25,295 nt of DNA from assembly GCA_023819025.1 (NCBI GenBank), contig JAMWDC010000001.1, positions 1-25,295 on the forward strand, read 5' to 3'. Below are positions 2 through 25,132 of this stretch, piece after piece. Both the position numbers and the translations under genes were made by a program. Source of the DNA: Candidatus Omnitrophota bacterium. Lineage in GTDB: Bacteria > Omnitrophota > Omnitrophia > Omnitrophales > Aquincolibacteriaceae. A model generated the notes under the pieces. That model was not told where the DNA came from. It saw only the letters and a list, made by a program, of their open reading frames with translations, and did no database searches. Numbering within the stretch: the stretch's first letter is position 1; each line of letters opens with the position of its first letter.

Positions 2-1309
2 GCTCATTACACCCTGTTCGAAGCATCCACGCTTGATAAGAAACGCGTCGTCTTGCAGGTTGCAGAACATATGGGGAAGAGTGATGTGCGTTGTATCTCC
101 TTGTCCGACACTCTCAATTTGCAGTTGAATGCATCGGTTGTCAACACACGGAAAACCGTAAAAATCCGCGTCGGCGACGAATTATTTGGCCGGATTATCA
201 ATGTCTTCGGAGAGCCCATTGATGGGATGGGGCCTCTCAAGTCTACGGAATTCAAAGTGACACGACGTCCACCACGCGAAGAAATATTTCAGATTAAAAG
301 TAAATATTCGGAAAAGGCCGAACTGTTAGAAACCGGCATTAGATATAGCGATGTGTTGTTTCCCTTGATCAAGGGCAGTAAGACGGGGGTTCTGGGGGGT
401 GCAGGGTGCGGCAAAAGCGTTGTGATTCTCGAATTGATCAATAACGTGGTTAAAAAGCACGATGGGGTTTGTGTTTTTGTCGGTATTGGCGAACGCATCC
501 GCGAAGGAAATGATCTTTTTAACGAACTCAGAGAAAACAATCTTCTCCCAAAAGTGAAGTTGGTTTTTGGTCAGATGAATGAACCCCCGGGCGCACGGTA
601 CGAATGCGTCAATACAGGGATTACTCTCGCCGAGGATTTGGCGGAACAAAATAAGGAGGTCCTCTTGTTTATGGACAATGTATTCCGATTTGTTCAAGGG
701 GGACAGGAAATCTCCACCCTGCTCGGGAGAGTCCCGGGAGAATCAGGTTATCAGCCGACCTTAGCGTCCGAAGTGAATTCCATCGAAGAAAGGATTCGTT
801 CGATCCACGGGGGAGGATCTATCACGTCTTATCAGGCCGTTTACGTTCCCGCAGATGATATGACCGATCCGGCAGTCGTTGCGCTTTTTAGCTGTTTGGA
901 CACAGTTTTGACCCTTTCTCGCGATCTCGCACAACGGGGTTTCTTCCCGGCGATTGATGCCCTTACCAGTTCTTCGTCCTTTCTTGATGCTCGCATTCTG
1001 GGCGAACGTCATTATAATGTTAGCCAGAAAATTATTGCACTGTTTGCAAAATATAATTCACTAAGGCGTATTGTTCAAGTTGTCGGTCTTGAGGAAATTC
1101 CGAAAGAGGACCAGATCGACTATAAACGCGGAGAAAAGCTTTTAAATTTCATGACGCAGCCCTTTACTGTTGCCGAGGCATTTACCGGAAAAAAAGGCGG
1201 ATTCGTTGCTCTAGAGGATGCTGTTTCGGATTGCGAAAAGATCCTAAATGGCGTCTATGATAAGTTGACTTCGCAAGATTTTTACTTGATCGGCCGAGCG
1301 CCGCACTAA
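2..1309 (+). CDS. atpD: F1-ATPase beta-subunit-like protein, divergent paralog; 5' end lies outside the window
   Basis: Frame is open from nt 2 (AHYTLFEASTLDKKRVVLQVAEHMG). Motifs: Walker A GGAGCGKS (395-418), GIGERIREGNDL, GQMNEPPGAR, FMDNVFRF, GYQPTL, YVPADDMTD, QPFTVAEAFTG. Not followed by atpC. Confidence 0.93.
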   Translation, partial: AHYTLFEASTLDKKRVVLQVAEHMGKSDVRCISLSDTLNLQLNASVVNTRKTVKIRVGDELFGRIINVFGEPIDGMGPLKSTEFKVTRRPPREEIFQIKSKYSEKAELLETGIRYSDVLFPLIKGSKTGVLGGAGCGKSVVILELINNVVKKHDGVCVFVGIGERIREGNDLFNELRENNLLPKVKLVFGQMNEPPGARYECVNTGITLAEDLAEQNKEVLLFMDNVFRFVQGGQEISTLLGRVPGESGYQPTLASEVNSIEERIRSIHGGGSITSYQAVYVPADDMTDPAVVALFSCLDTVLTLSRDLAQRGFFPAIDALTSSSSFLDARILGERHYNVSQKIIALFAKYNSLRRIVQVVGLEEIPKEDQIDYKRGEKLLNFMTQPFTVAEAFTGKKGGFVALEDAVSDCEKILNGVYDKLTSQDFYLIGRAPH

Positions 1310-1316
1310 GGTACTG

Positions 1317-3611
1317 ATGAATACTCCGATCGAGAGAACCGGCTATCGCATTGTCGCGGAATCCGGTTTTATCTCAAAAGAGGATTTAGATCGTATCTAT
1401 CGAGAATCAGAAAACTCGGATCTTACATTCTCCCAGCTCCTTGTCAGGAGTGGCCTCTTAAAAGAATCCGAGCTTCTTGGCTTGTACGCGAAACATCTGG
1501 GGATCCCCTTCATTAATTTGAAAACGCTTGTGATCGACAAAGCGATTCTATCCAAAGTACCGGTTAAATTTGCCGCCTATTACAAGTTCTTCCCCATGAG
1601 ATTGAACGACCGACGTTTAACCATCGCCATCTCAAAATTATTGGATGTCCATGTGTTGGATGAGATTCGTTTTGGCCTGGGATACGAGATCGAAACTGTG
1701 CTTGCTCCTGAAAAAGAGATTGAAGAAATGTTGAATCGTTACTATGGCTTGGGAGCCGATACGGTAGACAAGATCTTGACTCACGGTTCCGGTTTGTCTC
1801 CGGTTCCTTCCGAATCGATGTCAACACACGAAGTGGAGGATATCGAAACACTTGCAGAAACTCCCTCGGTTGTTCAACTGGTCAATCAGATTATTCTGGA
1901 TGCTTATAAAAAACGGGCAAGTGATATTCATTTAGAACCTTACCGTGACAAGGTCAGGTTGCGTTATCGCATCGATGGGCAGCTTTATGAACAAAACGTC
2001 CCACCTGAATGGAAGAAGTTTTTTATGTCCATTCTGTCGAGAATTAAGATCATGGCGAATCTTAACATTGTCGAACGGCGTTTGCCTCAGGACGGGAAAG
2101 CACGTGTCAAGACACAGGAACAAACTTTGGATTTGCGTATTTCATCGATTCCGACCCCTCACGGAGAAAGTATGGTGATTCGTCTTTTGCCGAGCCGGAT
2201 GATATTGAATCTCGATCAAATCGGCTTCCATGAGGAACATCGCAGGACATTCGAAGCTCTTATTCGGAAACCCCACGGGGTCATTTTCATGACGGGGCCT
2301 ACGGGGAGCGGGAAAAGCACCACGCTTTACGCCGGTCTGAATGCGTTGAATACCGTCGAGAGAAAAATCATCACAATTGAAGATCCTGTGGAATACGAAT
2401 TGGAAGGAATCGCCCAACTTCAAGTGACGCCGGAGATCGGGTTGACCTTTGCACGCGGTTTAAGAAACATGTTGCGTCATGATCCCGATGTGATGATGGT
2501 AGGGGAGGTTAGGGATTTGGAGACTGCGGACATTGCAATTCGAGCCGCATTGACCGGTCATTTAATCTTGTCAACCCTTCATACGAACGATGCGTCGAGC
2601 GGAGTCACACGGCTTCTGGATATTGGTGTTGAACCCTATTTGATTGCTTCGAGTGTGGTGGCATTTATTGCCCAGCGGTTAGTGCGTGTTGTCTGTCCCC
2701 ATTGTTCTCAAGAGAAGCAGGTATCTGCGGAGGTCCGGGCGATGATTGCGGCCGATCTTGAAATGTCCCATGACGAGGAGATGGTACTCCGGGCTGGGAG
2801 AGGTTGTGATGAGTGTAACGGTACAGGTTTTTGGGGGCGAACTGCAATCCATGAAATTCTCATTGTGAACGAAAAAATCCGTGAACTTATCTTCCGTCGT
2901 GCTTCATCGGAGGAGATTAAATTAAGGGCGCGCGAGTTGGGAATGGTAACACTCCGTCGGGATGGATGGCGTAAGGTTTTGAGCGGGCTGACCACCCCGG
3001 AAGAAGTTTTACAGCTGACCCCGGCCGATGAAGTGATGGAAAAGCAGTTATCCGCGCCCCCTCACTTGACTAAAAAAGAAGACGGAGAGGGTTTGTTGCT
3101 TTCCTCGATCGAAGCGGATCAAGGACCTCCACATGAGCGCGATGAAACTTCTCTTGTTCAGGATAAGCCTAAACGGCCAGAACGCGTGGGTCCGTCAGAG
3201 ACTAAGCAGATGCTTTCGGCGTTTACGGATCGAAGGAGTTATCCCCGGATCAAAATTGAAGCGTCGGTCAAGTTTCGAGTCATCGATATCAGTCAGGTGA
3301 TATCGGTTCAAGAAGGTTCCCCCCAATGGGACCAGATGGGCAAAACCGAAGACGTTAGTGCGAGCGGTGTTGCATTTTTAACCCATCATTTTCTGACTCT
3401 GGGAAATGTCCTAGAAATGACGATTCTACTTCCCGACAAACAGCAGAAAGAGATTCATTGCGTAGGTCGCGTGATTCGGGTGGTACGAGTGCTGGATTCG
3501 ACGCCACCCCGTGCAGAGTATGCGTACAAAGTGGCCGTCTCTTTTCTTGCGATTCCCAGTGATGACCGTTTACGGATCGAACATTTCTGCAAGGAGCAGG
3601 GATCGGGGTGA
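1317..3611 (+). CDS. gspE: GspE/PilB-family secretion/pilus assembly ATPase with C-terminal PilZ domain
   Basis: Walker A GPTGSGKST, TIEDPVE Asp box, VMMVGEVRD Walker B, LSTLHTND His box, CPHC...CDEC zinc motif. C-terminal RRSYPR and DVSASG are PilZ motifs. Confidence 0.95.
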   Translation: MNTPIERTGYRIVAESGFISKEDLDRIYRESENSDLTFSQLLVRSGLLKESELLGLYAKHLGIPFINLKTLVIDKAILSKVPVKFAAYYKFFPMRLNDRRLTIAISKLLDVHVLDEIRFGLGYEIETVLAPEKEIEEMLNRYYGLGADTVDKILTHGSGLSPVPSESMSTHEVEDIETLAETPSVVQLVNQIILDAYKKRASDIHLEPYRDKVRLRYRIDGQLYEQNVPPEWKKFFMSILSRIKIMANLNIVERRLPQDGKARVKTQEQTLDLRISSIPTPHGESMVIRLLPSRMILNLDQIGFHEEHRRTFEALIRKPHGVIFMTGPTGSGKSTTLYAGLNALNTVERKIITIEDPVEYELEGIAQLQVTPEIGLTFARGLRNMLRHDPDVMMVGEVRDLETADIAIRAALTGHLILSTLHTNDASSGVTRLLDIGVEPYLIASSVVAFIAQRLVRVVCPHCSQEKQVSAEVRAMIAADLEMSHDEEMVLRAGRGCDECNGTGFWGRTAIHEILIVNEKIRELIFRRASSEEIKLRARELGMVTLRRDGWRKVLSGLTTPEEVLQLTPADEVMEKQLSAPPHLTKKEDGEGLLLSSIEADQGPPHERDETSLVQDKPKRPERVGPSETKQMLSAFTDRRSYPRIKIEASVKFRVIDISQVISVQEGSPQWDQMGKTEDVSASGVAFLTHHFLTLGNVLEMTILLPDKQQKEIHCVGRVIRVVRVLDSTPPRAEYAYKVAVSFLAIPSDDRLRIEHFCKEQGSG

Positions 3612-4828
3612 AAAAATTTTGCTATCGGGCTAAAAAAGGGCCTCATGAAACGGTTGAAGGAATCGTAACTGCGGAATCCCAGGATGAAGCGATCGACAAG
3701 ATCAATCAGATGGGCCTTTTTGCAGTTGATGTCAAAGTCCAACGCCCCAACTATACCCCCCGGGGTTTAGTTTTCCGACTGAGAAGAAATAAAATGAAAG
3801 GGCGCGATATCATCGCGTTTTACCGACATTTAGGCCGGCTGACGCGATCCGGCGTGCCCATCTTACGGGCGCTGAATTTAATTACCGAGCAAATTCAATC
3901 CGAAACAGTAAAATCGATTTTGGAAGATATTCAAATGGCAGTCCGTCAGGGACATACGTTGTCTTCAGCCCTTGCGATCCACCCAACGATATTTTCTCCT
4001 TTTGATATTGCCATGATCCAAGCCGGTGAAAGCGCAGGACATATGGAAGAAGCGCTCATCAAGGTTGTGAACTATCGTGAACAGTTCGAGAGCCTGTCTT
4101 CCAAGGTCCGTTCAGCATTGGCTTATCCCTTATTGGTCCTTTCGGCAGGTATTTTAACTGCAGGCTTTATGTTGTATTATGTGGTACCCCGCTATATGCG
4201 GTTCTTTTCCGATTTGGGACAACAATTACCTTTGCTGACCCGGATTCTGATTGCCGTGAGTCAATGGATTACGACTTATGGGATATGGATTTTACTCCTA
4301 GGGATTTTATCTTCAATCGCGATAAGAAAGGTGTTGACTTTGAAATCGTACCGACAACGCTTCCACCAGATCCTGCTCGAAATCCCGCTTCTTGGAAGCC
4401 TCTTCATAAAAATTGAAACCGTTCATTTGACACGGACACTGGCGTTACTCGTGAAAAGCGGTATCCCGGTTCTGAACGCCGTGAAAATTGCAATTCCCGT
4501 CCTCAGGAATGAGGGCATGAAACACGAACTTGAACAATGCTATCAGATGATCGAAGATGGACGGTCCTTAAGTGAGAGTTTGCGACATTCAAAGTATTTC
4601 CCGGGGTTATTGATCCAGTTGGTGACTTTGGGTGAGGAATCCGGCCGGCTCGACGAGGCCTTAACCGAAATTGCGGATTGGTATGAGCGAGATACGGTCG
4701 AGGTAATCCATATCGGGACCCAGCTTTTAGAACCCGGCGTTATTTTACTGGTTGGATTATTTTTAGGGCTTGTGGTGATATCGGTTCTCTTACCCGTTTT
4801 CAGTATTCAGGCAACGATCGTTTCCTAA
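3608..4828 (+). CDS. gspF: GspF/PilC inner-membrane platform protein
   Basis: N-terminal FCYRAKKG, duplicated SGVPILRAL / SGIPVLNAV helices, AGESAGHM and LGEESGRL, LAYP, LEP, three TM segments. GTG start overlaps the gspE stop (GTGA). Confidence 0.93.
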   Translation: MKKFCYRAKKGPHETVEGIVTAESQDEAIDKINQMGLFAVDVKVQRPNYTPRGLVFRLRRNKMKGRDIIAFYRHLGRLTRSGVPILRALNLITEQIQSETVKSILEDIQMAVRQGHTLSSALAIHPTIFSPFDIAMIQAGESAGHMEEALIKVVNYREQFESLSSKVRSALAYPLLVLSAGILTAGFMLYYVVPRYMRFFSDLGQQLPLLTRILIAVSQWITTYGIWILLLGILSSIAIRKVLTLKSYRQRFHQILLEIPLLGSLFIKIETVHLTRTLALLVKSGIPVLNAVKIAIPVLRNEGMKHELEQCYQMIEDGRSLSESLRHSKYFPGLLIQLVTLGEESGRLDEALTEIADWYERDTVEVIHIGTQLLEPGVILLVGLFLGLVVISVLLPVFSIQATIVS

Positions 4829-4909
4829 GCAGAGAGGAGAAGGGAAGACGAAGATGATTCTCGTCGGGTGGTGGTTTAAAAACGCTGTGAGCATGGAATG
4901 GAGGCTTTC

Positions 4910-5350
4910 ATGAAAGTACGTCGTGCGTTGGTTTATGGAAGAAAAGGTTTCAGTTTAATTGAAATTTTATTGGTGGTGATTATCATCGGCACTTTATCAG
5001 CAATGGTTGTTCCAAGATTGTTGGGCCGATCCGACCAAGCCCGCATCACAGCAGCCAAAGCGGATATTGAAGTTAATATTCCCACCGCTTTGAAGTTATA
5101 CGAACTCGACAACGGATTTTTCCCCACGACCGAGCAGGGACTCAACGCGCTTTTAAAGAAACCGACCTCAAGTCCGGAGCCCCAAAATTGGAATGGGCCC
5201 TACTTGGAGAAAATACCGATGGATCCTTGGGGGAGGCCTTATCAATATCGATCGCCCGGGACTCAACGTCCGCACGATTATGATCTTTTCTCGAAGGGTA
5301 AAAATGACCGCGCTGAAAAGACTGACGACGATATTGTCAATTGGGAGTAG
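4910..5350 (+). CDS. gspG: Major pseudopilin GspG
   Basis: Class III signal G|FSLIEILLVV, LYELDNGFFPTTEQGLNAL, WNGPYL, DPWGRPYQYRSPG, C-terminal DDDIVNW. GGAGG at 4900-4904 favours ATG 4910 over the track start at 4898. Confidence 0.93.
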   Translation: MKVRRALVYGRKGFSLIEILLVVIIIGTLSAMVVPRLLGRSDQARITAAKADIEVNIPTALKLYELDNGFFPTTEQGLNALLKKPTSSPEPQNWNGPYLEKIPMDPWGRPYQYRSPGTQRPHDYDLFSKGKNDRAEKTDDDIVNWE

Positions 5351-5363
5351 CTCATCGCATCGG

Positions 5364-5756
5364 ATGAAAACCCAAACGGGCATGATTCTGCTCGAAATTT
5401 TATTGAGTGTGTTAGTGCTATCCGTCGGGCTTATCGCCGTCTATCGGCCTCTTTTGGCGTCTCTCAGTGCCCTCGATTATGCCGATACGCGGCTCGAAGC
5501 CCGCCATTTTATCGCAGACCGAATCTGGGAATGTCAACGCGCCATCCTTGAGAAGAAACGGCTGCCGACCATGGTCCAGAAGCAGCCGGTGGTATTGAAT
5601 AAACGGCAGGCTTATTATCAGGTGAAGATCATGCCTTTGAGTCCCGATAACCATTTGCTACGATTGAATCATGTGGTTTGGTGGCGCGCTGGCGGGCGTA
5701 TCAAAAATGTCAAACAATTCACCTACGTCAATCTGCCCTATGAGAAAAATTCGTAA
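5364..5756 (+). CDS. Minor pseudopilin, GspI/PilV-like
   Basis: MKTQTG|MILLEILLSVLVLSVGL: class III signal with Glu+5. The track ORF from 5193 over-extends into gspG; ATG 5364 is in frame. Confidence 0.75.
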   Translation: MKTQTGMILLEILLSVLVLSVGLIAVYRPLLASLSALDYADTRLEARHFIADRIWECQRAILEKKRLPTMVQKQPVVLNKRQAYYQVKIMPLSPDNHLLRLNHVVWWRAGGRIKNVKQFTYVNLPYEKNS

Positions 5757-6360
5757 TCAGTCGGGTTTAACCATGATGGAGATCTTGGTGGCTGTTTTAA
5801 TTATTTCTTTTTTGGCTGGAGTTCTCTATACTACTTTTTCTCACGGCATGGATGTATGGCGCCGAGCCGTGAGGGGATTTCCGGAATCAGATATGGATAT
5901 TTTTTTTGATAAAGTATCTACGGATTTGAGAAATGCCTTTGCCTTTTTGCCTAAATCATTAATGGGTACAACCCATTCCGTACAATTTTATACCCTCGTC
6001 CCCTCAGGGGATTTTACAGTAACCATCGTCAAAGAGCCCATGCAGGAGCCGGCTCGTGTTCGTTATGATTTCGATCGAGACCATAAGGCGATCTGGAGGC
6101 GTCAGGAACGGTACCCTCAAATTCTTTACGCCTACAGCGGACTCCAACCACGGGTCGCAAAGTTAGCCGAGGGCATTTCGAATATCGAACTTGAGTACTA
6201 TGCCTATGATGAAAACGCTAAAAAATTTGTCTGGTCTTCCGGTTGGGATAAGTCGTATTTGCCGTGTGCAGTGAGAATGAAGCTGACTTCTGAAAAGCCG
6301 TCGGCGAAAAAGGTGTTCATGCGTGTCATTTCGATCCCTGCGGGTATGACAGCCAATTAA
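5740..6360 (+). CDS. Minor pseudopilin, GspJ/PilW-like
   Basis: MRKIRNQSG|LTMMEILVAV, DKVSTDLRNAF, C-terminal LPCAVRMKL typical of GspJ. ATG 5740 is in frame with the track ORF from 5671. Confidence 0.78.
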   Translation: MRKIRNQSGLTMMEILVAVLIISFLAGVLYTTFSHGMDVWRRAVRGFPESDMDIFFDKVSTDLRNAFAFLPKSLMGTTHSVQFYTLVPSGDFTVTIVKEPMQEPARVRYDFDRDHKAIWRRQERYPQILYAYSGLQPRVAKLAEGISNIELEYYAYDENAKKFVWSSGWDKSYLPCAVRMKLTSEKPSAKKVFMRVISIPAGMTAN

Positions 6361-6370
6361 GGAGTTCAGG

Positions 6371-7870
6371 GTGGGTAAGGTACGGCTTCCGGTGTCGGGT
6401 TTGATTCCGTCGGGCCGCATGCGGGATTTGGTCGCTGTGGATTTATCATCCAGTTCGGTCAAAGTAGTCCACGCGACTCGGGGTCCGGAAGAATTGGTTG
6501 CCTTTCGTCATCTAAACACCAGAGAATTTGGTGAGAACGCCGATGATGAAATCAGTCAATATCTTGCGGGTTGCATTAAGGAATTCGGTGTCTCTTCCAG
6601 AGATATCTTATGCATGATCCCCTCCACACTTTTTATCTCTAAAAACGTCGATATGCCTTCCAGTGACAGGGAAGAGATCGATAAAATTATTGATCTGCAA
6701 GCAGGTCGCTATACGCCTTATTCCCGTGACGAGATCGTGATTGATTATGTCTGCATGGAGACGACCGGGCAACATTATACGAATGTCTTGCTGATCATCG
6801 TGAATCGGCAAGTGGTCGATCGCTATCTGCAGGTTGCGGGAAAGGCGGGGCTGAATATCGAGCGGTTTGTGATTTCTTCAGAAGGAATGGCGAATTGTTA
6901 TGATGCCATGGATGAAACGGGATCCGATTCGTATGCCGTCGGAGGAATCCATATTGAGGAGAATTTTTCCGACTTTACCGTCATCAACAATCATCAGATG
7001 GTATTTGTCCGGAATATACCGGTTGGGTTCAATCATTTCAAAAAGGATCGGGAGCATGCCCTCAACGATTTTTTGGGTGAGCTGGACAAATCCGTGGTTG
7101 CTTACCGGGATCAAGGCGTAGGGAAAACCATCAAGTCGATGATCGTTACGGGTTTGATCGACGGGCTTGCTTTTTTGGAGGAATCTATTCGAAAGACGAT
7201 CAACCGGCTTTACGGTCCGGGTGGCGAAGTGAAGTTCGTCCCGTACGCTACACTTTTCCAGGCCGAGAGTGATTTAACTCAGCGCCTAGAATCGGAACAG
7301 AAGAATTCTTTTTTCCCCCTGATGGCGTCTCTTTCGGCTTTATTGTTTTTAAAAATCGATTTGACCCCCAAAGAAATCAAGTTAAAAAGGCGCGTCCGGC
7401 AAGGCAGTAAAGAGGTGATGACCTTAGGCATTTTGATCATGGTATGTCTTGTCTTATGGTGCTTATATCTCGCAACAAAGATTTATATCAAAAGTGACAT
7501 TATCCAAAAATTGGATGAGATCCAATCTTCTACCGCGGAAGATGCGCGTCTTTTAGAACGAGCCTCAACGAAAACGCGTGTTGTCAAATCGTTGCTCAAG
7601 GACCGGGGAAAAGCGCTCTATGTCTTTGAAAGGGTGACGTCGTTAATTGGGAAAGAAATCTATTTGACGGATTTTAGCTACGATACGGCGGGGGATATTT
7701 TGCTTGTGGGGACGGCAAATTCAATGTCTCGGGTTTTTGCGTTTGTTTCCGAACTTGAGGAATCAAATTACTTTAGCAGCGTTAAAACCAAATCGACCAA
7801 GACGCGTCGTGTTGGACAAATGGACGTTGCCGATTTTGAAATTGAGTGCACATTGTCCGGGGAAATTTAG
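6371..7870 (+). CDS. PilM-PilN fusion (GspL-like assembly protein)
   Basis: N-terminal actin-like AVDLSSSSVKVV, internal IDLTP (PilN INLLP-like), one TM segment, C-terminal PilN-like domain (FVSELEESNYFSSV...DFEIEC). AAGGAG at 6359-6364 precedes GTG 6371. Confidence 0.78.
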   Translation: MGKVRLPVSGLIPSGRMRDLVAVDLSSSSVKVVHATRGPEELVAFRHLNTREFGENADDEISQYLAGCIKEFGVSSRDILCMIPSTLFISKNVDMPSSDREEIDKIIDLQAGRYTPYSRDEIVIDYVCMETTGQHYTNVLLIIVNRQVVDRYLQVAGKAGLNIERFVISSEGMANCYDAMDETGSDSYAVGGIHIEENFSDFTVINNHQMVFVRNIPVGFNHFKKDREHALNDFLGELDKSVVAYRDQGVGKTIKSMIVTGLIDGLAFLEESIRKTINRLYGPGGEVKFVPYATLFQAESDLTQRLESEQKNSFFPLMASLSALLFLKIDLTPKEIKLKRRVRQGSKEVMTLGILIMVCLVLWCLYLATKIYIKSDIIQKLDEIQSSTAEDARLLERASTKTRVVKSLLKDRGKALYVFERVTSLIGKEIYLTDFSYDTAGDILLVGTANSMSRVFAFVSELEESNYFSSVKTKSTKTRRVGQMDVADFEIECTLSGEI

Positions 7871-7878
7871 GTGTTTGG

Positions 7879-8616
7879 ATGATTGTTGAACAAGTCGAAA
7901 CGTTTTATTCCAAGCTGTCAAAAAACGGGCAATTACTTTTCATTATTGCCGTGATCTCTTCTCTGATGGCGCTCATGGATTTGCTAGTGTTAGGTCCTAT
8001 CCTGACCCATATCCATTCCATGGATTTGGATATAGCGGACAAAACAGCGGCGTTGAAGCGTGATTTGAGGATCTTATCGTTCCGGGATGGGATCTTGTCA
8101 GAATATAAGAAGTATCAATCTTATTTGGATTCCGGCGAGAAGACCCAAGAACAGATCGTGTCGGCTTTATTGAATAAGATCGAGTCCTTTGCGAAGGAAA
8201 AATCGGTATCGATATCAGATGTTCAACCCGGGGATATGACAGAAAGTTCCATTTTTCAGATCTATAAGACGTCATTATCGGGCGAAGGTAAACTCTTAGA
8301 TGTTTTGCAATTTATGGACATGCTTGAAGAATCCGATTACCTATTTCGGGTGATCAAGTTTACATTAACCCCGAAATCGAAAGGTGCCGACGTCATGAAA
8401 TTTACTTTAGATATCGAACGGGTCCTTGTGGCAGGTGAAGAGATCACTCTTGAAGTTGACAAGGAGGCCTCCGGTCTGTCTCTCGAAGAATCAGCGGAAG
8501 CGGCTGAGGAATCGACGAGTGAGACAGACGCAATATTGGATGAGGCCGGTTCCAACACAGAACTACCCCCGGATGAATCGGCAACCGAGGATGCGGCATC
8601 ACCCGCCGGTGTGTAA
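7879..8616 (+). CDS. PilO/GspM-like bitopic protein with acidic low-complexity tail
   Basis: LSKNGQLL followed by a TM segment, coiled coil and a ferredoxin-like pattern (SLSGEGKLLDVLQFMDMLE). Sits after the PilMN fusion. Start is uncertain (7846 or 7879). Confidence 0.68.
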   Translation: MIVEQVETFYSKLSKNGQLLFIIAVISSLMALMDLLVLGPILTHIHSMDLDIADKTAALKRDLRILSFRDGILSEYKKYQSYLDSGEKTQEQIVSALLNKIESFAKEKSVSISDVQPGDMTESSIFQIYKTSLSGEGKLLDVLQFMDMLEESDYLFRVIKFTLTPKSKGADVMKFTLDIERVLVAGEEITLEVDKEASGLSLEESAEAAEESTSETDAILDEAGSNTELPPDESATEDAASPAGV

Positions 8617-8675: not shown

Positions 8676-9413
8676 GTGAGGCACTATTCTTTCAAAACAT
8701 GCAGACCATTATTATGCGGTGATTCTGGTCGGCATCCATTCGCTTCCACGACACGGTTTCAAGGGGTGCTCAAAATCACAGTCATCATCGGGTTGGTATT
8801 GTTGATTTGGGCTCATCCCAGTTTCGGTAAAAGTGTCGAGGACTATTATAAGGCGGGGGTCCGATATTTAGATAAGGGTAAATATGCAAAAGCCATTCGG
8901 CAGTTTCAAAAGATTCTGCAAGAGAGGCAGGATCTCCCGCAAATTTATAATCTGATGGGTGTTGCCTATTTACGAGAGGGGAAATCCATCGAAAGCGCCG
9001 TTGGATCTTTCCAGGAGGCGGTAAGGCTCGATCCCCATTTTACGGAGGGGTATTATAATTTGGGGGTGACGTATGTGGGGCCAGGGGATAATCCTTCCTT
9101 AGCCGCGCAATATTTTGAAAAGGCTATCGAAACCAATCCAGATTTTTTTCCTGCTTATTTAGGATTGGGGTGGATTACGTTATCGATCAATAAGGATCCG
9201 GAAAAAGCCATTTTGTTATTCGAAAAAGCAATTCAATGCCCCGAAAAAAAGGCGGAGGCGTATTACGGGTTGGGCATGGCTTATGCCACGCTGGGCAAAA
9301 AAGAAATGACCCTGATGCCGATTTCAATGCTAAGGTCCATGAACCGGCTGGATCTTTCATCGATCGAGGAATCGATGATCAAGGAAAAACCCGGTCAAGG
9401 GGATGGCTCATAG
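8676..9413 (+). CDS. Exported TPR-repeat protein
   Basis: About 5 TPR units (YYKAGVRY, IYNLMGVAY, YYNLGVTY, AYLGLGWI, AYYGLGMAY). Signal-like ITVIIGLVLLIWAHPSFG. True start is probably downstream (e.g. GTG 8766). Confidence 0.82.
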   Translation: MRHYSFKTCRPLLCGDSGRHPFASTTRFQGVLKITVIIGLVLLIWAHPSFGKSVEDYYKAGVRYLDKGKYAKAIRQFQKILQERQDLPQIYNLMGVAYLREGKSIESAVGSFQEAVRLDPHFTEGYYNLGVTYVGPGDNPSLAAQYFEKAIETNPDFFPAYLGLGWITLSINKDPEKAILLFEKAIQCPEKKAEAYYGLGMAYATLGKKEMTLMPISMLRSMNRLDLSSIEESMIKEKPGQGDGS

Positions 9414-9854: not shown

Positions 9855-10562
9855 CTATTGTTTTCTTTTTAACGTGTCGATGAGAATGGCGAAGGTAACC
9901 TTGATCATGTAGTAAATGGTTGAAAAATATCGAATCGAAGAAGTCCCGCCCAGGCGTTTGCGCATGTTGACAGGGACTTCTCGAATTCGGGCTCCATACC
10001 GAGTGGCGATCTTAATGGCTTCAGGTTCCGGGAAATCGATCGGATAATAACGAGAAAAATGCTCAATGAGATGTTTGCCCGTTGCTCGAAAACCCGATGT
10101 CGGATCTGTCAAGTAGACTCTGGTAAGCCAGCCGAGGAGAACCGAGAAAAACCGGATGCCCATTCTTCGTAAAAAAGTTGATTTAAAGCGTGAGCGGTCC
10201 GACAAAAAACGGCTTCCGATACAGAGGTCGGCTTCATCGTTCAAAACCGGTGATAGAACATCTTTGAGATAGGCGGGGTCGTGTTGTGCATCTCCGTCAA
10301 TTTGGATTGCGATATCGTATCCTTTTTGATGCGCGTACTTGAAACCAGTTTGAACAGCACCACCGATGCCGAGATTATAAGGGAGTGTTACAACGTGGGC
10401 GCCGCCTTGAGACGCTTTTTGGGCTGTGTCATCGCGGGATCCGTCATTGATCACTAAGATTGTGTAATTCGGATAACGCTTTGAGATATCTTGAACCAAC
10501 CGTTTGATGACCCTGCCCTCGTTGTAGGCAGGGATCATGACGAGGATGCGCTTCTTTTGCAT
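9855..10562 (-). CDS. GT2 glycosyltransferase, DPM1-like (polyprenyl-phosphate sugar synthase-like)
   Basis: IPAYNE, VINDGSRD, NLGIGGAVQTG, IDGDAQHDP, DPTSGFRA, EVPVNMRKR. Confidence 0.9.
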   Translation of the reverse strand: MQKKRILVMIPAYNEGRVIKRLVQDISKRYPNYTILVINDGSRDDTAQKASQGGAHVVTLPYNLGIGGAVQTGFKYAHQKGYDIAIQIDGDAQHDPAYLKDVLSPVLNDEADLCIGSRFLSDRSRFKSTFLRRMGIRFFSVLLGWLTRVYLTDPTSGFRATGKHLIEHFSRYYPIDFPEPEAIKIATRYGARIREVPVNMRKRLGGTSSIRYFSTIYYMIKVTFAILIDTLKRKQ

Positions 10563-10599: not shown

Positions 10600-13305
10600 A
10601 TGATGGAAAAGGCTTCTCAGGTGATTCGGGCTGTGCGTCAGAAGATCGATGGGTTTCTATTGATGATTAAGCAGAAATTCCAAGAAGCCCATCTTGCCTA
10701 TGAAGGCTTAAACCTTCAGCAGGGATCCCCGAGATTGATTTTATTTGTTATATCCTTTTTGTTTGTAAGTAGTTACGCAATTTACTTTAGAACTTATAAG
10801 CTTCATCGATTCTTGAATTTGGAATACAACTTTACACGCACCCAAGCTGAGAAAATTGTGACCGAGAAAATGACCAAACAGCTGAGAAGCATCATCGATC
10901 TTCAATTCCCTCAGATGGCGGATCGTGAAAAATCTCTCTTAGCAGAAGAGCGCGTTAAGGCTGCAAAAAATTCCGAAAAGGATAAATTTGAAGAAGCTGT
11001 TCGGCAAACCCAAAGATCCATGGTTCCGAGCTGGTATATGACATCGTCCCCACCCCAATCACGACACTACCTCCTTGAAGCCGATCCGTATTATTATTAT
11101 TACTTCACGAAAAACCTCTGTGAAACAGGTAAACCAGGCCCACCTTTGGAACGGCGCGGTGTGGTTTTTAACCCCCTGCGGAGATTTCCGATGGGAATGT
11201 CTGAGAGCGCCCTCGGGCATTCCTATGTAGGGTACTATTGGTTTCGGGCTGCGCATTTTTTTAATTCTAAAATCGATTTGATGGAATCGCTTAATTATGT
11301 TCCCCTTATTTTGGTTGTATTGGTGATCTTTGTTTTCTTCGTTTTCTGCCGTGTTATGCAGTTGGGGCTCTTGGCAGCTTTTTTGGGGAGTCTCGCCTTG
11401 GTCGGCGCGCCCATTTTTATCCAACGCAGTCAGTTTGGGTGGTACGACACCGATCCGTACAACTATATCTTTCCCTTCAGTATTCTGGCAGTTTATTTAT
11501 GGGGAGTTGGGGGAGATAAACGATGGCTGCTAGGATCCGTTGCCGCGGGTTTTCTGACCGGGCTTTATTCTAATTTCTGGCCTGGTTGGCCGTTTATTTT
11601 TTATTACTTAAGTGTCAGTGGCTCGGTGATAGGATGTATTGTTTGGTTTTTTCGGCGAAAGTTTATGAATTCTTTTATCAAGAGCACCCTCGGATATATT
11701 CTAGCGGCTCTGTCTTTTCTCATGTTTTTTATGCCCTCGACTGTCTTATGGGCTGCACTCATGGAGCCGTTGAGGGCACTGCCATTATTTGCGAGCAAGA
11801 GCGGTGTTGTGAATTTATGGCCGAATGCACTCTTGGCCGTAGGCGAAACCAAAGAGGTCTCATTGAGAAAACTCGTGTATCTTATTGGGAATCAGCTTAC
11901 GTTGTGGTTAGCTGGGATGGGCGTTGTCCTTACCCTTGGAAGTTTTTTTGTGCGGCAGAATATTCTGTATATTAGTCAGTGGTTTCTTCTCATGGTTTTG
12001 ATTTTGCCTCTTTTGATGTTATCGCTAAATGTTGAACGTTTTACGCTTTTATTTGTCATACCCATGAGCATTTTTGTGGCGGCAGGTATTGAAAGGGCTT
12101 ATGAACTCCTTGGGCATTTATTTTGCCTCTTCATCAGAAACCGCCCCTTTCAACAAATTTTTCGAGTCATTTTGGGCGGTTCCATGCTGCTAATATTTTT
12201 ACCGGCGGCATCCATTACAGCCCATATTTCTGCTCAGATCGATCATACGATTATGAATGATACATGGTTTGATGCCTTAAGTACGATCCGTCAGAAAACC
12301 CCTCAACATTCAGTAGTTATCAGTTGGTGGCCCCCTGGACATTTTATCACTTCAGTTGCAGAAAGGGCCGTTTTTACAGACGGAGGATCCCAGCATTTGC
12401 GCGAAACCTATTGGGTGGCCAAAGGTTTGTTGGAAATGGGCGAGGACGTAGCTGTGGGAATTTTTCGAATGTTGAATATTTCGGGTGCATCTGCGACATC
12501 CTTTTTGGAATCTTTGGGATTTCCTCCCTCAAAAATAGTCGGGTTTATCCTTCAGATAGTTCCTCATTCGAAAGGAGTTGCCCTGAAGATGTTGGAGCAA
12601 TCATCCACCGGATTATCCCTGAGCCAAATGAAGCATCTTGTTGATTTGACCCATGGCAACACTCCACCACGTCCCAATTATATTTTAATGTACAATGATA
12701 TGATCGATCAGACTTTAGCCCTTACGTTTTTAGCTTACTGGGATTTTGACAAGGCCGAAGCCATCATGAAAGCACCGCGTACTTTTTTAGATTTCAAATC
12801 GTTTCCCTCTCCCTCTAAAGCGGGGCCCGTACAAAAAAAAACCAGCCTTCAACAGATCTTAGAATCTTCAGGATGCATTTTGAAGTATACCCCCGAAGCG
12901 GAGCTGGTACGGCGGGAGGGGGATAAGCTCTATTTTGGGAATGGCTTGATGGTGGATCTGACAACGATGGATTCCTACGTTGCCCTGCCTGAAAAGTTGG
13001 TGAGCGGTCGACCGATAAGCTTCTTTTACATGCAGGGTGGGCAGCTGGTTCAAAAGGAAAATGCCGGTGAACGGGTGGATGCTTCCGCGCTCTTGATCTC
13101 CCGAAACGGTCGCTATACCTCTGTAATTGCGGATCCGAAACTGATACGGTCGGTCTTGTTCCGCCTTTGGTATTTAAATGGAGCGGGGTTGAATTTTTTT
13201 AAACCGTTTTATGAAAAGGCGGATCCTGCAAATCAAACAAGGATTTTGGTTTTTGAAATCGACTGGCCGGCGTTTGAAAGATTTCAAGCCAACGAGGTAT
13301 TTTAA
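10600..13305 (+). CDS. STT3/PglB/AglB-family oligosaccharyltransferase, non-canonical WWPPG motif
   Basis: EADPYY (STT3 EFDPW equivalent), R-x6-DTD (RSQFGWYDTD), AVGE (TIxE/SVSE equivalent), ERF, many TM segments, then SWWPPGH...DGGSQH in a large soluble C-terminal domain. Confidence 0.85.
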   Translation: MMEKASQVIRAVRQKIDGFLLMIKQKFQEAHLAYEGLNLQQGSPRLILFVISFLFVSSYAIYFRTYKLHRFLNLEYNFTRTQAEKIVTEKMTKQLRSIIDLQFPQMADREKSLLAEERVKAAKNSEKDKFEEAVRQTQRSMVPSWYMTSSPPQSRHYLLEADPYYYYYFTKNLCETGKPGPPLERRGVVFNPLRRFPMGMSESALGHSYVGYYWFRAAHFFNSKIDLMESLNYVPLILVVLVIFVFFVFCRVMQLGLLAAFLGSLALVGAPIFIQRSQFGWYDTDPYNYIFPFSILAVYLWGVGGDKRWLLGSVAAGFLTGLYSNFWPGWPFIFYYLSVSGSVIGCIVWFFRRKFMNSFIKSTLGYILAALSFLMFFMPSTVLWAALMEPLRALPLFASKSGVVNLWPNALLAVGETKEVSLRKLVYLIGNQLTLWLAGMGVVLTLGSFFVRQNILYISQWFLLMVLILPLLMLSLNVERFTLLFVIPMSIFVAAGIERAYELLGHLFCLFIRNRPFQQIFRVILGGSMLLIFLPAASITAHISAQIDHTIMNDTWFDALSTIRQKTPQHSVVISWWPPGHFITSVAERAVFTDGGSQHLRETYWVAKGLLEMGEDVAVGIFRMLNISGASATSFLESLGFPPSKIVGFILQIVPHSKGVALKMLEQSSTGLSLSQMKHLVDLTHGNTPPRPNYILMYNDMIDQTLALTFLAYWDFDKAEAIMKAPRTFLDFKSFPSPSKAGPVQKKTSLQQILESSGCILKYTPEAELVRREGDKLYFGNGLMVDLTTMDSYVALPEKLVSGRPISFFYMQGGQLVQKENAGERVDASALLISRNGRYTSVIADPKLIRSVLFRLWYLNGAGLNFFKPFYEKADPANQTRILVFEIDWPAFERFQANEVF

Positions 13306-13755: not shown

Positions 13756-14805
13756 ATGATATTCTTTCACAACGGTAAGGGCAGTATTCTGATTCTGACC
13801 CTTTGGGTTCTTACGCTACTCAGTGTCTTTGTTGTTTCCGTTGGGTACTCAACGCGCCAGAGGTTGCGGAAGTTGCAGCACCTTGAAAACCGCGAAACGT
13901 TGCGCACCGTCGCCGATGCAGGCGTTCGGCAGGCTATTTATTTTGTGAACGCGACTCAAGGCAGACCTTTCACGCCGCATGGCTTTAGTGACCGACCGTC
14001 TCGAGGGGTAGCAAATTTCCAAGATGTCCTGATCGGGGATGCTATGTTTTCAGTGATTGTACTTGATGGTTCATTGGCCCCGGAGAAATCCCGCGATTCA
14101 GCTCACAGTTTCCGCTACGGAGTCGTTGATGAAGAGCGGAAGATTCATCTCAACCAAACTAACTCACCCCAGATTCTGAAGCGCCTCTTCCAACTTGCAG
14201 CGGGTTTAAATGAGGTTGATGCTCATACGATTGCTGTTTCCATACTGGATTGGCGGGACGAAGATGACTTTCCCTATGATCGAGGTGCCGAAAGCTTTTA
14301 TTACAAAAGCCGTAAGCCGCCCTATATCCCTAAAAATGCCGACTTTAATTCTCTGGAAGAGTTGTTGCTGGTTCGAGGTGTCTCCCCAGAGATCTATCGA
14401 AAGGTCCTTCCCTATCTCACCTTGGATAGTTCGGGAAAGATCAATATCAATACGGCGTCGCGTGTGGTGTTGGAAGCTGTGGGTTTTAGTGAGTCACTCA
14501 CATCAAAAATATGGCGTTATCGCGCTGGGAAAGACACCCGCGAAGGAACCCGGGACGACAAGTTTTTTAAAGATCTATCGACCGTAGCCGATAATATATC
14601 AGGTATATATTACTTAACGGATGATGAAAGGGGCAGTTTGGAAAGTTTTATCGGTTCGGGAATGATCATCGTTCGATCAGAAAATTTCTCGATTCATAGT
14701 ATCGCCCGATTTAAAAATCGGGCGAATCCGACATTGACCATTCATTGTGTTGTGACGCTTGATGGTCGGATCAAGCGATGGCAGGAATATTTTAACGTGG
14801 CCTAG
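13756..14805 (+). CDS. gspK: Minor pseudopilin GspK
   Basis: G|SILILTLWVL without Glu+5 (typical of GspK), DEERKIHLN, ILDWRDED, FNSLEELLLVRG, GKININTAS. Confidence 0.9.
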   Translation: MIFFHNGKGSILILTLWVLTLLSVFVVSVGYSTRQRLRKLQHLENRETLRTVADAGVRQAIYFVNATQGRPFTPHGFSDRPSRGVANFQDVLIGDAMFSVIVLDGSLAPEKSRDSAHSFRYGVVDEERKIHLNQTNSPQILKRLFQLAAGLNEVDAHTIAVSILDWRDEDDFPYDRGAESFYYKSRKPPYIPKNADFNSLEELLLVRGVSPEIYRKVLPYLTLDSSGKININTASRVVLEAVGFSESLTSKIWRYRAGKDTREGTRDDKFFKDLSTVADNISGIYYLTDDERGSLESFIGSGMIIVRSENFSIHSIARFKNRANPTLTIHCVVTLDGRIKRWQEYFNVA

Positions 14806-16897: not shown

Positions 16898-17599
16898 TTA
16901 GTTTTTTATCGCACGGAAGATCATATCGCCTGCCAATAGATTAGGCCACCACATCCTCGTCGCAGGGAGAATTCCAGCACATTGGGATTCCAAGATTTTA
17001 AACCCTTGGCCCTGCAAGAGCGTTTTCATCGTCGGATAAGTAAATCGGTGTAGAATTCCCCCCTCCCAGGCAGGAAATTTATTAAAAGTCGGCAGTTTGC
17101 CCAAAAGGGATTCCAAACGTCTTGGAAGATAGGCTACATTCATGGTATGGATAATCAGGACCCCCTGTGGGACAAGGATTCGGTGAAGTTCCTTCAGGAA
17201 AGCGAAAGGATCGAAGAGGTATTCGATCGTACTCAAACAAATGACAAGGTTGAATGAGTGGTCTTTAGAAGGAATGGGATCGTTTAAATTATGCTGAACA
17301 ACACTCAATTTGGGATTGGTTTTGAGGGATGCCGGGATTCCATCCAACCGGTAGGAGGAAATATCAAATCCCGTATAATGGCCGAACTGGTTAAGTTTTC
17401 GGACGGCGATTTGACAGGGGCCACAGCCGACGTCAGCGACCTCTGGATAGGTGTTGGTGCCGATCATCTGACAAGCGACGTCGATGCGCGTTTTAGCGAA
17501 GGGAAGTAAAAAGCGGTAAAAGGCGTGATCCATTGCCTTGGTCTCATCTCCATCAAGCAAGGCATAGCGGGCGTTATAAAAAGCTGCGGGATCCGTCAT
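16898..17599 (-). CDS. Class I SAM-dependent methyltransferase
   Basis: VADVGCGP motif I, GFDIS, DLVIC-like FNLVICLSTIEY, LHRILVPQGVLII. ATGA overlap with the upstream aminotransferase. Confidence 0.88.
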   Translation of the reverse strand: MTDPAAFYNARYALLDGDETKAMDHAFYRFLLPFAKTRIDVACQMIGTNTYPEVADVGCGPCQIAVRKLNQFGHYTGFDISSYRLDGIPASLKTNPKLSVVQHNLNDPIPSKDHSFNLVICLSTIEYLFDPFAFLKELHRILVPQGVLIIHTMNVAYLPRRLESLLGKLPTFNKFPAWEGGILHRFTYPTMKTLLQGQGFKILESQCAGILPATRMWWPNLLAGDMIFRAIKN

Positions 17600-18735
17600 G
17601 ACAATGTTGACCGGATAGTTGCAATCGTTTGACAGACTCGGTCAATTTCGTCGTCCGTAATTGCCAATCCACTCGGCAGATAACAACCGTTCTGAGAAGC
17701 GTATTCCGTATTTGGGAAAATTTCGGTCAACGTCAAATATTTTTGCAATACCGGCTGCCTATGCGGTGGATAAAATAAATCCCGTGAGTCAATCTGGTAA
17801 TCGCGAAGACGGATTCTCAGCTCGTCTTTGCTGATCCCAAATTTTTCTTTTTCGATCAGAATCACATACATCCAGTAAACATTTTTAACTTCAGGTCGTG
17901 TCACCGGTGTTCGGATACCCGGGATTGTTGTTAACTGGGATCGATAACGTTCCGCCATGGATAATTTCCGGGAAATCGACTGCTGAACATTTTCGAGCTG
18001 TCCAAGTCCAATGGCTGCCTGAATGTTGGTGAGCCGGTAGTTGTAGCCAATATCCTCATGGATAAACCGCCGTTGATCGGAATGATAAAGGTCTCGGATT
18101 TTCCTGAGTTTTTTTGCCAGGGCATCGCTGTTAGTGAGGATCATCCCGCCTTCGCCTGTGGTTACAATTTTATTGGCATAAAAACTGAAGCAGGCGATAT
18201 CACTCATCGCACCGCACTTTCGACCTTTGTATTCTCCTCCGTGTGCCTCCGCCGCATCTTCAATGACGAAAAGACCGAACCGCTTGGCGATCTCCAGGAT
18301 GGTATCCATGTCGCAGGAATGGCCGAAAAGGTGTACGGCCATCAGGGCTTTGGTCTTTCTTGTGATTTTTGCCTCAATTTGACGGGGGTCGATATTGAAA
18401 GTCTCCTGGTCGCAATCGACGAAAACCGGTTTTGCACCGGTATACAGGACGGCAAAGATCGTCGCCATCATCGTAAAGGCGGGAACAATGACTTCATCTC
18501 CAGGTTGGATACCCAGGGCACAAAGAGCGGCGTGGAGAGCCGCCGTGCCGCTTGAAACACTGATTCCATGTTTCGTTCCAATATAGTCGGCAAATGTTCG
18601 TTCGAATTTTTCGATATAGGAACCGGCCGAAGAGATCCACCCCGTTTCCAAACAATCCATAGCGTACCTTTTCGCGGCTTCCGAAATCAAAGGTTCATTG
18701 ACGGGAATGAATTTATTCTTTAAATCGTTTCGCAT
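17596..18735 (-). CDS. DegT/DnrJ/EryC1/StrS PLP-dependent sugar aminotransferase (perosamine synthase-like)
   Basis: SSGTAALH, VIVPAFT, IEDAAEAHG, FSFYANKIVTTGEGGM (PLP Lys), GYNYRLTNIQAAIG, CYLPSG. Confidence 0.92.
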   Translation of the reverse strand: MRNDLKNKFIPVNEPLISEAAKRYAMDCLETGWISSAGSYIEKFERTFADYIGTKHGISVSSGTAALHAALCALGIQPGDEVIVPAFTMMATIFAVLYTGAKPVFVDCDQETFNIDPRQIEAKITRKTKALMAVHLFGHSCDMDTILEIAKRFGLFVIEDAAEAHGGEYKGRKCGAMSDIACFSFYANKIVTTGEGGMILTNSDALAKKLRKIRDLYHSDQRRFIHEDIGYNYRLTNIQAAIGLGQLENVQQSISRKLSMAERYRSQLTTIPGIRTPVTRPEVKNVYWMYVILIEKEKFGISKDELRIRLRDYQIDSRDLFYPPHRQPVLQKYLTLTEIFPNTEYASQNGCYLPSGLAITDDEIDRVCQTIATIRSTLS

Positions 18736-19144
18736 ATTGGTCGCCCGGATAGGGCCCTTGCTTGACCTCGATCAGCCGGACCTCCTCAAGGACATCAAAG
18801 GAATGCCCTCCGGTGATCGAAAAGAAAAAATCGCCAGCATCGAGGATCGTTGCATAGATAACTTTCCAATCGGACGTATAAATTTTGACTTTCATCCTGC
18901 CCTTTTCCACATAAAGGAATTCCTGAGTTGTATTCACCTCATAATGCATGTCCCGATGCAGATGAGGCCGGAATGAATAGCCTTTTTTTCGTTCGATCAG
19001 CCCCAGCTGAAGGGGATAATCCGCAGGGGTCAAGAACTTGACGCCATCGCCCACGGCCAGTTTTTTACGAAAGATGTAAGCATAAAGTGTCCCTTCGTGC
19101 TCAATTCGTTCGATGGCAGTCATTTCAGGTTCATTCGTCATCAT
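18713..19144 (-). CDS. Cupin-fold protein of sugar-nucleotide gene clusters
   Basis: FRPHLH, TQEFLYVEKG, GGHSFDVLE, EVKQGPY. ATG 19144 overlaps the upstream TAA (TAATG); the track start at 19213 over-extends. Confidence 0.72.
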   Translation of the reverse strand: MMTNEPEMTAIERIEHEGTLYAYIFRKKLAVGDGVKFLTPADYPLQLGLIERKKGYSFRPHLHRDMHYEVNTTQEFLYVEKGRMKVKIYTSDWKVIYATILDAGDFFFSITGGHSFDVLEEVRLIEVKQGPYPGDQYAKRFKE

Positions 19145-24436: not shown

Positions 24437-25132
24437 TCAAGATCGATTCAACAGCAGTTGAAAAAGTTCCCGAAATGCGCGAAGAATGACACGAGGATTC
24501 CCGCCGGTCTGATTTCCAGCAGGCCTTGGGTAATGCCTGACCGGTACTTCGCATACGTGGAGGCCTTTCTTTTGGGCATAATACAGGATTTCTGCATTGA
24601 TAAGGGCACCAGTGGATTTAAGAGGCAGGGTCTTCACCCCTTCGGCTTTGAACATTTTAAAAGCGCAGTTAAGGTCTTTGACTTTGACGCCCAAAAGCAA
24701 TCGGATGGCCAAATTCCATCCGCGGGAATAAAGCCATCGGGCAAAAGGATCCGCTCTTTTCTGGCGGTATCCGGTGACGATATCGTACGAGTGGATGTGG
24801 GGGAGTAATTGGCAGATTTCGCGTACGTCGAACTGGCAATCGCCGTCCGTAAAGAAGATAACGGAATACCGGGAGGCGCGTATGCCTGAACGGATTGCGG
24901 CACCGTACCCGAGATTTTTGGGATGGTGGACGACCCGTACCTCGGGATATTGCAGGGCGAGTTTTTCGGCCAATGCCTTAGTTCCATCCGCACTTCCATC
25001 ATCGACGATGATAATTTCGTATCGTCGGCTTACCTCGGACAGAACCTGCCGCAGCGCCGTGACCATGCGGGACAGATTACGTTCCTCATTGTAAGCAGGA
25101 AAAAAAGCTGAAATTTCCGCAAGCTGGTCCAT
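24437..25132 (-). CDS. GT2 glycosyltransferase, ArnC/DPM1-like
   Basis: FFPAYNEE, IIVDDGSAD, NLGYGAAIRSG, FFTDGDCQFD, DLNCAFKMF, EVPVRHYPR. Confidence 0.9.
   Translation of the reverse strand: MDQLAEISAFFPAYNEERNLSRMVTALRQVLSEVSRRYEIIIVDDGSADGTKALAEKLALQYPEVRVVHHPKNLGYGAAIRSGIRASRYSVIFFTDGDCQFDVREICQLLPHIHSYDIVTGYRQKRADPFARWLYSRGWNLAIRLLLGVKVKDLNCAFKMFKAEGVKTLPLKSTGALINAEILYYAQKKGLHVCEVPVRHYPRPAGNQTGGNPRVILRAFRELFQLLLNRS

Follow-up and report, generated by a model that had tools for sequence, protein, structure and literature searches.

The window analysed here is the entire contig C271 (25,295 bp) of genome G000, a metagenome-assembled genome (MAG) of Candidatus Omnitrophota that is 82% complete and comprises 327 contigs. 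It opens inside a gene for the beta subunit of an F-type ATPase, which the contig end cuts at its 5' side, and runs from there into genes resembling those of type II secretion systems (T2SS). Three features make up the junction:

2-1309 (+): accessory F-type ATPase beta subunit, 5'-truncated (PF00006, 3e-65; TIGR01039, 485.2 bits against a cut-off of 462.85)
1310-1316 (+): 7-nt spacer GGTACTG between the beta stop codon and the gspE ATG
1317-3611 (+): GspE/PilB-family assembly ATPase, 764 aa (PF00437, 5e-130; PF05157, 4e-19; PF07238, 7e-10)

Judged by its sequence, the stretch 2-1309 is the last gene (beta) of the accessory 'symbiotic' F-type ATPase of Omnitrophota and related phyla of the Planctomycetota-Verrucomicrobiota-Chlamydiota (PVC) group. 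It looks co-transcribed with a T2SS/type IV pilus (T4P)-type pseudopilus machine that has the appearance of responding to cyclic di-GMP (c-di-GMP).

The beta-gspE junction and its conservation

No stop codon interrupts the beta frame from the first base of the window until the TAA at 1307-1309. Its product lacks about 36 N-terminal residues relative to the 471-aa ortholog of genome G002 and passes the TIGR01039 (atpD) cut-off despite the truncation; the full-length ortholog scores 527.6 bits. Family searches used Pfam and NCBIfam profiles with equivalog or subfamily cut-offs, and pairwise scores were taken against the Protein Data Bank (PDB). A Shine-Dalgarno-like AAGG lies 9-12 nt 5' of the gspE ATG and overlaps the beta stop. 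The initial annotation of this DNA had placed the beta stop at 1309 and the gspE start at 1317, with a 7-nt gap holding neither terminator nor promoter. The coordinates agree, and a consensus scan of positions 1165-4959 found no terminator-like site and no promoter-like site on the forward strand. As the annotation also had it, no epsilon gene lies 3' of the window beta; gspE stands there instead.

The window beta is not the beta subunit of the housekeeping ATP synthase. Exactly two matches to the alpha/beta family occur in this genome, the window beta and a beta on contig C228, which share 45% identity; the window beta is 84% identical to both of its orthologs in G002. On C228 the order is gamma (cut by the contig end), beta and epsilon, a canonical set that provides the separate atp genes for which the initial annotation had proposed a search. 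A maximum-likelihood tree of 104 betas, with alphas as the root, puts the C228 beta among canonical Omnitrophota betas and the window beta in another clade.

Orthologs of the window beta were found in 20 of 40 surveyed genomes of the same order, 13 at 73-84% and 7 at 52-55% identity, and these carriers additionally hold a canonical beta at about 45-47%. The closest loci (73-84%) all come from Candidatus Omnitrophota MAGs. A wider survey, with one genome per species, extended the module to five phyla, Omnitrophota, Planctomycetota, Verrucomicrobiota, Kiritimatiellota and Lentisphaerota; carriers outside Omnitrophota are labelled Planctomycetales, Verrucomicrobiota, Kiritimatiellota, Lentisphaerota/Victivallales or 'PVC group' and often have two tandem alpha genes. 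Every gspE-linked beta in the tree belongs to a single clade (SH-aLRT 100, stem length 0.77), and outside it stand the canonical betas together with a verified N-ATPase beta (G036:C61; TIGR03305, 895.9 bits). These data show that the gspE-linked betas share a single evolutionary origin. They also set the window beta apart from canonical and N-ATPase betas; Mycoplasma type 2 and type 3 enzymes were compared through profile and pairwise scores.

We found gspE directly 3' of beta in all 67 clade loci that extend past the beta stop; one further locus, L072, ends at a contig edge and could not be scored. Across 68 junctions the gap has a median of 8 nt and measures at most 15 nt in 46 cases, ATGA and TAATG overlaps included. 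Such regularity is far more than chance would produce. Only beta-carrying genomes have GspE orthologs at or above 50% identity, and these adjoin beta in every case where the contig extends far enough; the gspE next to beta in G005, at 48%, falls under that line. Because the junction has outlived rearrangements of the ATPase gene order, we regard it as strong evidence that the ATPase and the pilus machine are functionally coupled. The initial annotation had proposed a repurposed F1-like motor tied to the pilus apparatus. The tie to the pilus machine stands, with the adjacency conserved among relatives, and the genes upstream, as read in relatives, are not a sole, complete Fo+F1 operon of the genome; the F1-only part has to be given up, as c and b-delta are encoded (see below).

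The adjacency might also carry no functional meaning, with an accessory atp remnant hitch-hiking beside a pilus operon. The patchy presence of the module (half of the same-order relatives) would suit such a history, as would the horizontal gene transfer and losses of the ATPase locus reported for Omnitrophota (Seymour et al., 2023, Nat Microbiol; PMC10066038). Against it stand catalytic residues under purifying selection, an ATPase and a GspE ortholog that are gained and lost together, and a junction kept with overlaps or 1-15 nt gaps in 67/67 loci of five phyla. We disfavour this explanation as highly improbable.

Subunit composition and comparison with known F-type enzymes

Since the contig starts within beta, we read the upstream ATPase genes in relatives. 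In G030 the order is a giant repeat protein (X), a 474-aa protein (Y), alpha, c, a b-delta fusion, gamma, beta, gspE, gspF and gspG. The same gene set is present in 18/18 fetched contexts; a more distant class has the order c-b/delta-alpha-gamma-beta. Family matches in relatives support the assignments of alpha (TIGR00962, 521 bits), c (PF00137), b-delta (PF00430 and PF00213) and gamma (PF00231). The system further includes a short epsilon of about 92 aa that matches PF02823 only, corresponding to the N-terminal beta-sandwich without the C-terminal helical domain. Its gene lies between alpha and c in G012 and G009 and is unlinked in G030, G023, G036 and the present genome, where it is found at C190:3369-3640 beside a glyceraldehyde-3-phosphate dehydrogenase gene and is broken by a run of N (scaffold gap). 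The absence of an epsilon gene after beta thus does not extend to the system. Likewise, the idea of alpha and gamma genes upstream with no Fo genes held in the relatives for alpha, gamma and the missing subunit a, but failed for c and b-delta, which are present.

Two observations concern copy number. Modules from Verrucomicrobiota, Kiritimatiellota and Lentisphaerota (L062-L085) carry two tandem alpha paralogs, both with full PF00006 and PF00306 domains (for example L081:4577-6064 and 6027-7505), which suggests a heterogeneous alpha ring. G002, the closest relative among the MAGs, holds two near-identical full copies of the module, L034 (C53) and L035 (C64), from duplication or from strain mixing (the MAG has ~6% contamination).

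The association itself has been published. Seymour et al. (2023; PMC10066038) described a 'symbiotic', non-respiratory F-type ATPase beside type IVa pilus (T4aP) clusters in Omnitrophota, with the two as neighbours in 56 of 111 Velamenicoccia species and in every class, and within 10 kb of each other in 57 of 66 contigs. Their locus shares with ours the phylum, a second alpha/beta set distinct from the respiratory one, an adjoining T4P/T2SS cluster and giant open reading frames (ORFs) nearby. The window comes from an Omnitrophota genome, its beta is distinct from the respiratory beta, and pilus/T2SS genes lie within 10 kb, gspE at a distance of 7 nt. It is therefore an instance of this locus type and its value is confirmatory; the report of extra F1 alpha/beta genes near pilus genes that the initial annotation had mentioned is real. 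Beyond the main text of that study, which gives neither a subunit composition nor an occurrence outside Omnitrophota, our survey adds the lack of a, the retention of c and b-delta, the short epsilon, the strict beta-gspE junction and the presence of the module in four further PVC phyla. That study placed the alpha subunit with Mycoplasma types 2 and 3, whereas our profile and pairwise scores put alpha and beta nearer to canonical F1. A paper on V. archaeovorus (PMC12583861) does not mention the accessory ATPase.

The Mycoplasma enzymes, type 2 (the M. mobile gliding G1-ATPase, MMOB1660/1670) and type 3 (MSC_0618/0619), resemble the present one as extra, non-synthase rotary ATPases that are tied genetically to surface machinery and huge surface proteins and for which mechanical work has been proposed. 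Their family cut-offs are nevertheless missed by the window beta (NF045858 MMOB1670, 406.3 bits against 850; NF045934 MSC_0618, 366.8 against 570) and by the alpha ortholog (MMOB1660, 400 against 600; MSC_0619, 270 against 520). In pairwise comparison with PDB entries, all canonical betas listed reach 388-447 bits and outscore the M. mobile G1 beta (9io5_A, 338 bits); the alpha ortholog has its best scores with canonical bacterial alphas and passes the atpA cut-off. Mycoplasma clusters reportedly lack c and b/delta. In contrast, c and b/delta are present here, and the partner is a T2SS-like operon.

N-ATPases share with the accessory enzyme the position of a second F-type operon in the genome and a b-delta-like fused stalk; the best NCBIfam match of the stalk is alt_F1F0_F0_B. 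They differ in gene order and in having a, AtpQ and AtpR. We rejected an N-ATPase identity on the scores (TIGR03305, 433.4 bits against 752; b, 60 against 225), on gene order and on the placement of a true N-ATPase beta outside the gspE-linked clade. That true N-ATPase belongs to G036, which holds three F-type systems (L130 = C61:28000-32369). Its beta (896 bits) is preceded by pyruvate kinase, and a 2-hydroxyacid (D-lactate) dehydrogenase gene splits beta from an alternative epsilon.

The canonical F1Fo synthase is closer in several respects: atpD and atpA scores are passed, catalytic residues are intact, and gamma, the epsilon N-domain and c are recognisable. It differs from the accessory enzyme, which forms a separate clade, has no a, a fused b-delta, a truncated epsilon, a weakened DELSEED loop and a c subunit whose first transmembrane (TM) helix lacks the glycine motif, and has gspE in place of atpC downstream. 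A canonical operon encodes subunit a and places atpC after beta, and the accessory beta has neither.

FliI and SctN are homologs of F1 alpha/beta that work in protein export. By analogy, an alpha3beta3-gamma head resembling FliI/SctN-FliJ could unfold the giant protein or pseudopilins, or release them from chaperones, and so feed them to export, with the c-ring and b-delta serving as membrane anchors only. The window beta does match TIGR01026, at 191.1 bits, and in relatives giant proteins are encoded directly upstream. However, this score is far from the FliI/SctN cut-off of 379.5 bits, and a heterohexamer that combines non-catalytic alpha with gamma and a c-ring is built to generate torque. 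Moreover, no export-gate homologs were found among the window ORFs scanned, and it is Sec or Tat, not an ATPase, that carries T2SS substrates across the inner membrane. An export role of this kind therefore appears improbable to us. The kinship to Mycoplasma type 2/3, N-ATPases or FliI/SctN considered in the initial annotation is not borne out by the family thresholds.

Subunit a, ion translocation and a probable rotary motor

In five relatives with 94-97% completeness, PF00119 (subunit a) matches once per genome, always within the canonical atpB-E-F-H-A-G-D-C operon, whereas PF00137 (subunit c) matches twice. The accessory ATPase therefore has a rotor ring and a peripheral stalk without a dedicated subunit a. 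Hydropathy scans of the ORFs in about 70 clusters revealed no polytopic protein apart from GspF. The 474-aa ORF upstream of alpha (Y) was considered as a divergent subunit a and rejected, since its TM helices number only two and its periplasmic part folds into a beta-sandwich and helical bundle. In the present genome PF00119 has no match in the 82%-complete assembly, and alpha, a and c genes of either F-type system are missing from the assembled contigs. A tblastn search of the same assembly with X, Y, alpha, c, b-delta and gamma of G002 and G030 gave no match either. Putting the loci together, we infer a complex of alpha3beta3, gamma, short epsilon, c-ring and fused b-delta stalk, without a.

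Catalysis appears preserved. All linked betas keep the P-loop GGAG[C/L/M]GK[S/T] or a GGAA variant, the GERIREG motif and the Walker B Asp, which in the window beta read GGAGCGKS, GIGERIREG and, for Walker B, LLFMDNVFRF. The position of the alpha Arg finger is R or K in all linked alphas. With catalytic residues intact, the enzyme would fit ATP hydrolysis and rotation. Other features are altered. The DELSEED loop is weakened and partly neutralised (EEIPKED in the window beta), and linked c subunits keep the RNP loop and lack the GxGxGxG packing motif in TM1. Of 55 linked c genes, 51 encode the TM2 Glu and four have Thr or Met in its place, compared with Glu or Asp in 22/22 canonical c subunits. 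The four genes that lost the carboxylate (L038:6217-6468, L040:6002-6514, L075:6734-6952 and L078:3694-3909) belong to otherwise intact operons; L060 contains a second c-like gene with Gly at this position.

The C-terminal domain of epsilon inhibits hydrolysis in bacterial F1. An epsilon without this domain, the loss of the c carboxylate in 4/55 against 0/22 genes, the loss of the TM1 motif and the weakened DELSEED loop together are signs of a use restricted to hydrolysis and independent of ions, and they suggest that ion translocation is not essential. Most probably, with the mechanism inferred, the accessory enzyme is a rotary motor that ATP drives, that pumps no ions and that acts jointly with the pseudopilus and giant-protein apparatus.

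The strongest competitor to this proposal is a second F-type ATPase or synthase that truly translocates ions, for instance by pumping Na+ or H+ to sustain the membrane potential for secretion. Such a pump would use the single canonical a or an unrecognisably divergent a-like protein, and the gspE neighbourhood would reflect co-regulation. The TM2 Glu and the RNP loop of most linked c subunits would fit this idea, as would the presence of the whole rotor/stator set apart from a and the passing of the atpD and atpA equivalog cut-offs by beta and alpha. On the other hand, the only PF00119 match of near-complete genomes sits in a canonical operon that has its own c, GspF is the only polytopic ORF in the ~70 clusters, and four lineages have lost the c carboxylate with the rest of the operon in place. 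The lost TM1 glycine motif and an epsilon without its regulatory C-terminal domain also speak against a pump, and co-regulation alone would hardly account for a strict link to gspE in five phyla. On balance an ion pump that borrows or hides its subunit a seems unlikely to us, though less so than an export ATPase.

Some points weigh against the non-pumping motor. The subunit composition is extrapolated from orthologs at 73-84% identity, with the upstream genes unassembled in this genome. The mostly retained c-ring Glu (51/55) speaks for a continuing role of ion or charge binding, perhaps through a hidden ion path or the canonical a subunit. As coupling partners, Y, the giant protein and GspF are conjectures that draw on synteny and the conservation of a TM helix.

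Returning to the non-pumping motor, the enzyme would run in the hydrolysis direction only, and ATP hydrolysis would spin a rotor made of gamma, epsilon and c-ring relative to the b-delta stator. Without the half-channels of subunit a the torque would move no ions, and some partner inside the membrane would take it up. Our best candidate for this partner is Y, a conserved bitopic protein that is fused to or adjoins a giant surface protein. The ATPase has Y at its side in Omnitrophota and the PVC phyla alike; in one class Y is the C-terminal portion of a larger protein, ~2,000 aa or more in length. Its most conserved 25-column window is the C-terminal TM helix, TTWWIIxGIxxFLxxxSxxFYxxW (0.59 compared with 0.40 overall). 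Such conservation of a TM helix suggests that Y has a specific partner within the membrane, for which the c-ring or the stalk would be our candidates. An AlphaFold model of Y (predicted local distance difference test score 85) comprises an N-terminal helix, two beta-sandwich and helical-bundle repeats and the C-terminal TM helix. A Foldseek search with the model found nothing in the PDB at E <= 0.001 and only uncharacterised orthologs in the AlphaFold database. The protein encoded upstream of Y (L027:75-2093, L035:595-4413) consists of dozens of tandem 11-residue 'LSKAGVNWDDL' repeats, a coiled-coil and a Ser/Thr-rich tail; it has spurious Pfam matches only and reaches at least 1,600 aa in some loci.

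Together, the motor and the GspE/GspF pseudopilus would deploy, move or secrete surface structures for attachment or predation. The roles in attachment, motility or substrate handling that the initial annotation had suggested are likewise conjectural. The specific form of this proposal, an a-less F-type ATPase acting as a mechanical motor whose c-ring/stalk torque drives Y and the giant protein and/or the GspF platform, is one that we put forward tentatively and hold to be doubtful. If torque does reach Y, the giant protein or GspF, the module would represent a new class of envelope energy transducer across Omnitrophota and PVC bacteria, with a role like that of GldLM or MotAB and ATP as its power source. 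If the channel-less enzyme serves a pilus, secretion or adhesin apparatus mechanically, this would be the second independent reuse of an ATP synthase as a motor after Mycoplasma gliding, and the first to keep a membrane c-ring. The module is widespread in PVC bacteria and may underlie attachment or predation by ultra-small Omnitrophota.

The pseudopilus operon and neighbouring genes

Downstream of beta and gspE the window encodes further components of a T2SS/T4P-type machine:

3608-4828 (+): GspF/PilC inner-membrane platform protein (PF00482, 8e-53; TIGR02120, 338 bits, cut-off 424)
4898-5350 (+): GspG major pseudopilin (TIGR01710, 160.9 bits, above the cut-off of 88.85; PF08334, 8e-34)
5193-5756 (+): minor pseudopilin-like ORF, a weak call (TIGR02523, 1.2e-5, below cut-off)
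5671-6360 (+): GspJ-like minor pseudopilin (N_methyl, 7e-6; T2SSJ/gspJ matches weak)
6371-7870 (+): PilM-PilN fusion (PF11104, 5e-16; PF05137, 9e-12)
7846-8616 (+): 256-aa ORF without family match, in the PilO/GspM slot by position only
8676-9413 (+): tetratricopeptide repeat (TPR) protein resembling PilW or Tgl (TPR families; type_IV_pilW, 52 bits, below cut-off)
13756-14805 (+): GspK-like minor pseudopilin (PF21687 T2SSK_1st, 9e-21)

The gspF gene overlaps the end of gspE by 4 nt (3608-3611). In the ORF at 5193-5756 a prepilin/PilV-like N-terminus begins at residue 61, and the true start is probably near 5350. The PilM-PilN fusion sits where a GspL/GspM-type assembly platform would be. With a GspE/PilB-family ATPase, GspF, a GspG that passes its equivalog cut-off, GspJ/K-like pseudopilins and PilM-PilN, the operon resembles T2SS and T4aP systems; it differs from them in beginning with a rotary ATPase and in a GspE with both MshEN and PilZ domains. 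Like the export gate, a secretin (GspD), a prepilin peptidase and PilT have no homologs among the window ORFs scanned.

The window GspE stays under both equivalog cut-offs (TIGR02533 GspE, 567 bits against 630.25; TIGR02538 PilB, 559.2 against 675.65) and passes only that of the Pfam T2SSE superfamily (433.9 bits). It combines an N-terminal MshEN domain (aa 61-145), T2SSE and a C-terminal PilZ domain (aa 638-759) in which RSYPR and DVSASG represent intact RxxxR and DxSxxG motifs. MshEN and PilZ are thus two putative c-di-GMP sensors. A cluster of the most divergent Omnitrophota class (L093:5265-6143) includes a response-regulator-GGDEF diguanylate cyclase, along with an MA-family peptidase. 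This cyclase and the GspE of the window, with its MshEN and PilZ domains and intact motifs, point to control of the module by c-di-GMP.

Glycosylation genes stand between the main pseudopilus operon and the GspK-like gene. An STT3/AglB/PglB-type oligosaccharyltransferase of 901 aa is encoded there at 10600-13305 (+) (PF02516, 1.7e-14), and its neighbours encode family 2 and family 1 glycosyltransferases, a DegT aminotransferase and a methyltransferase (9855-10562 (-), 16898-20391 (-) and 24437-25132 (-)). Pilins or surface proteins may be N-glycosylated by a system that these genes encode.

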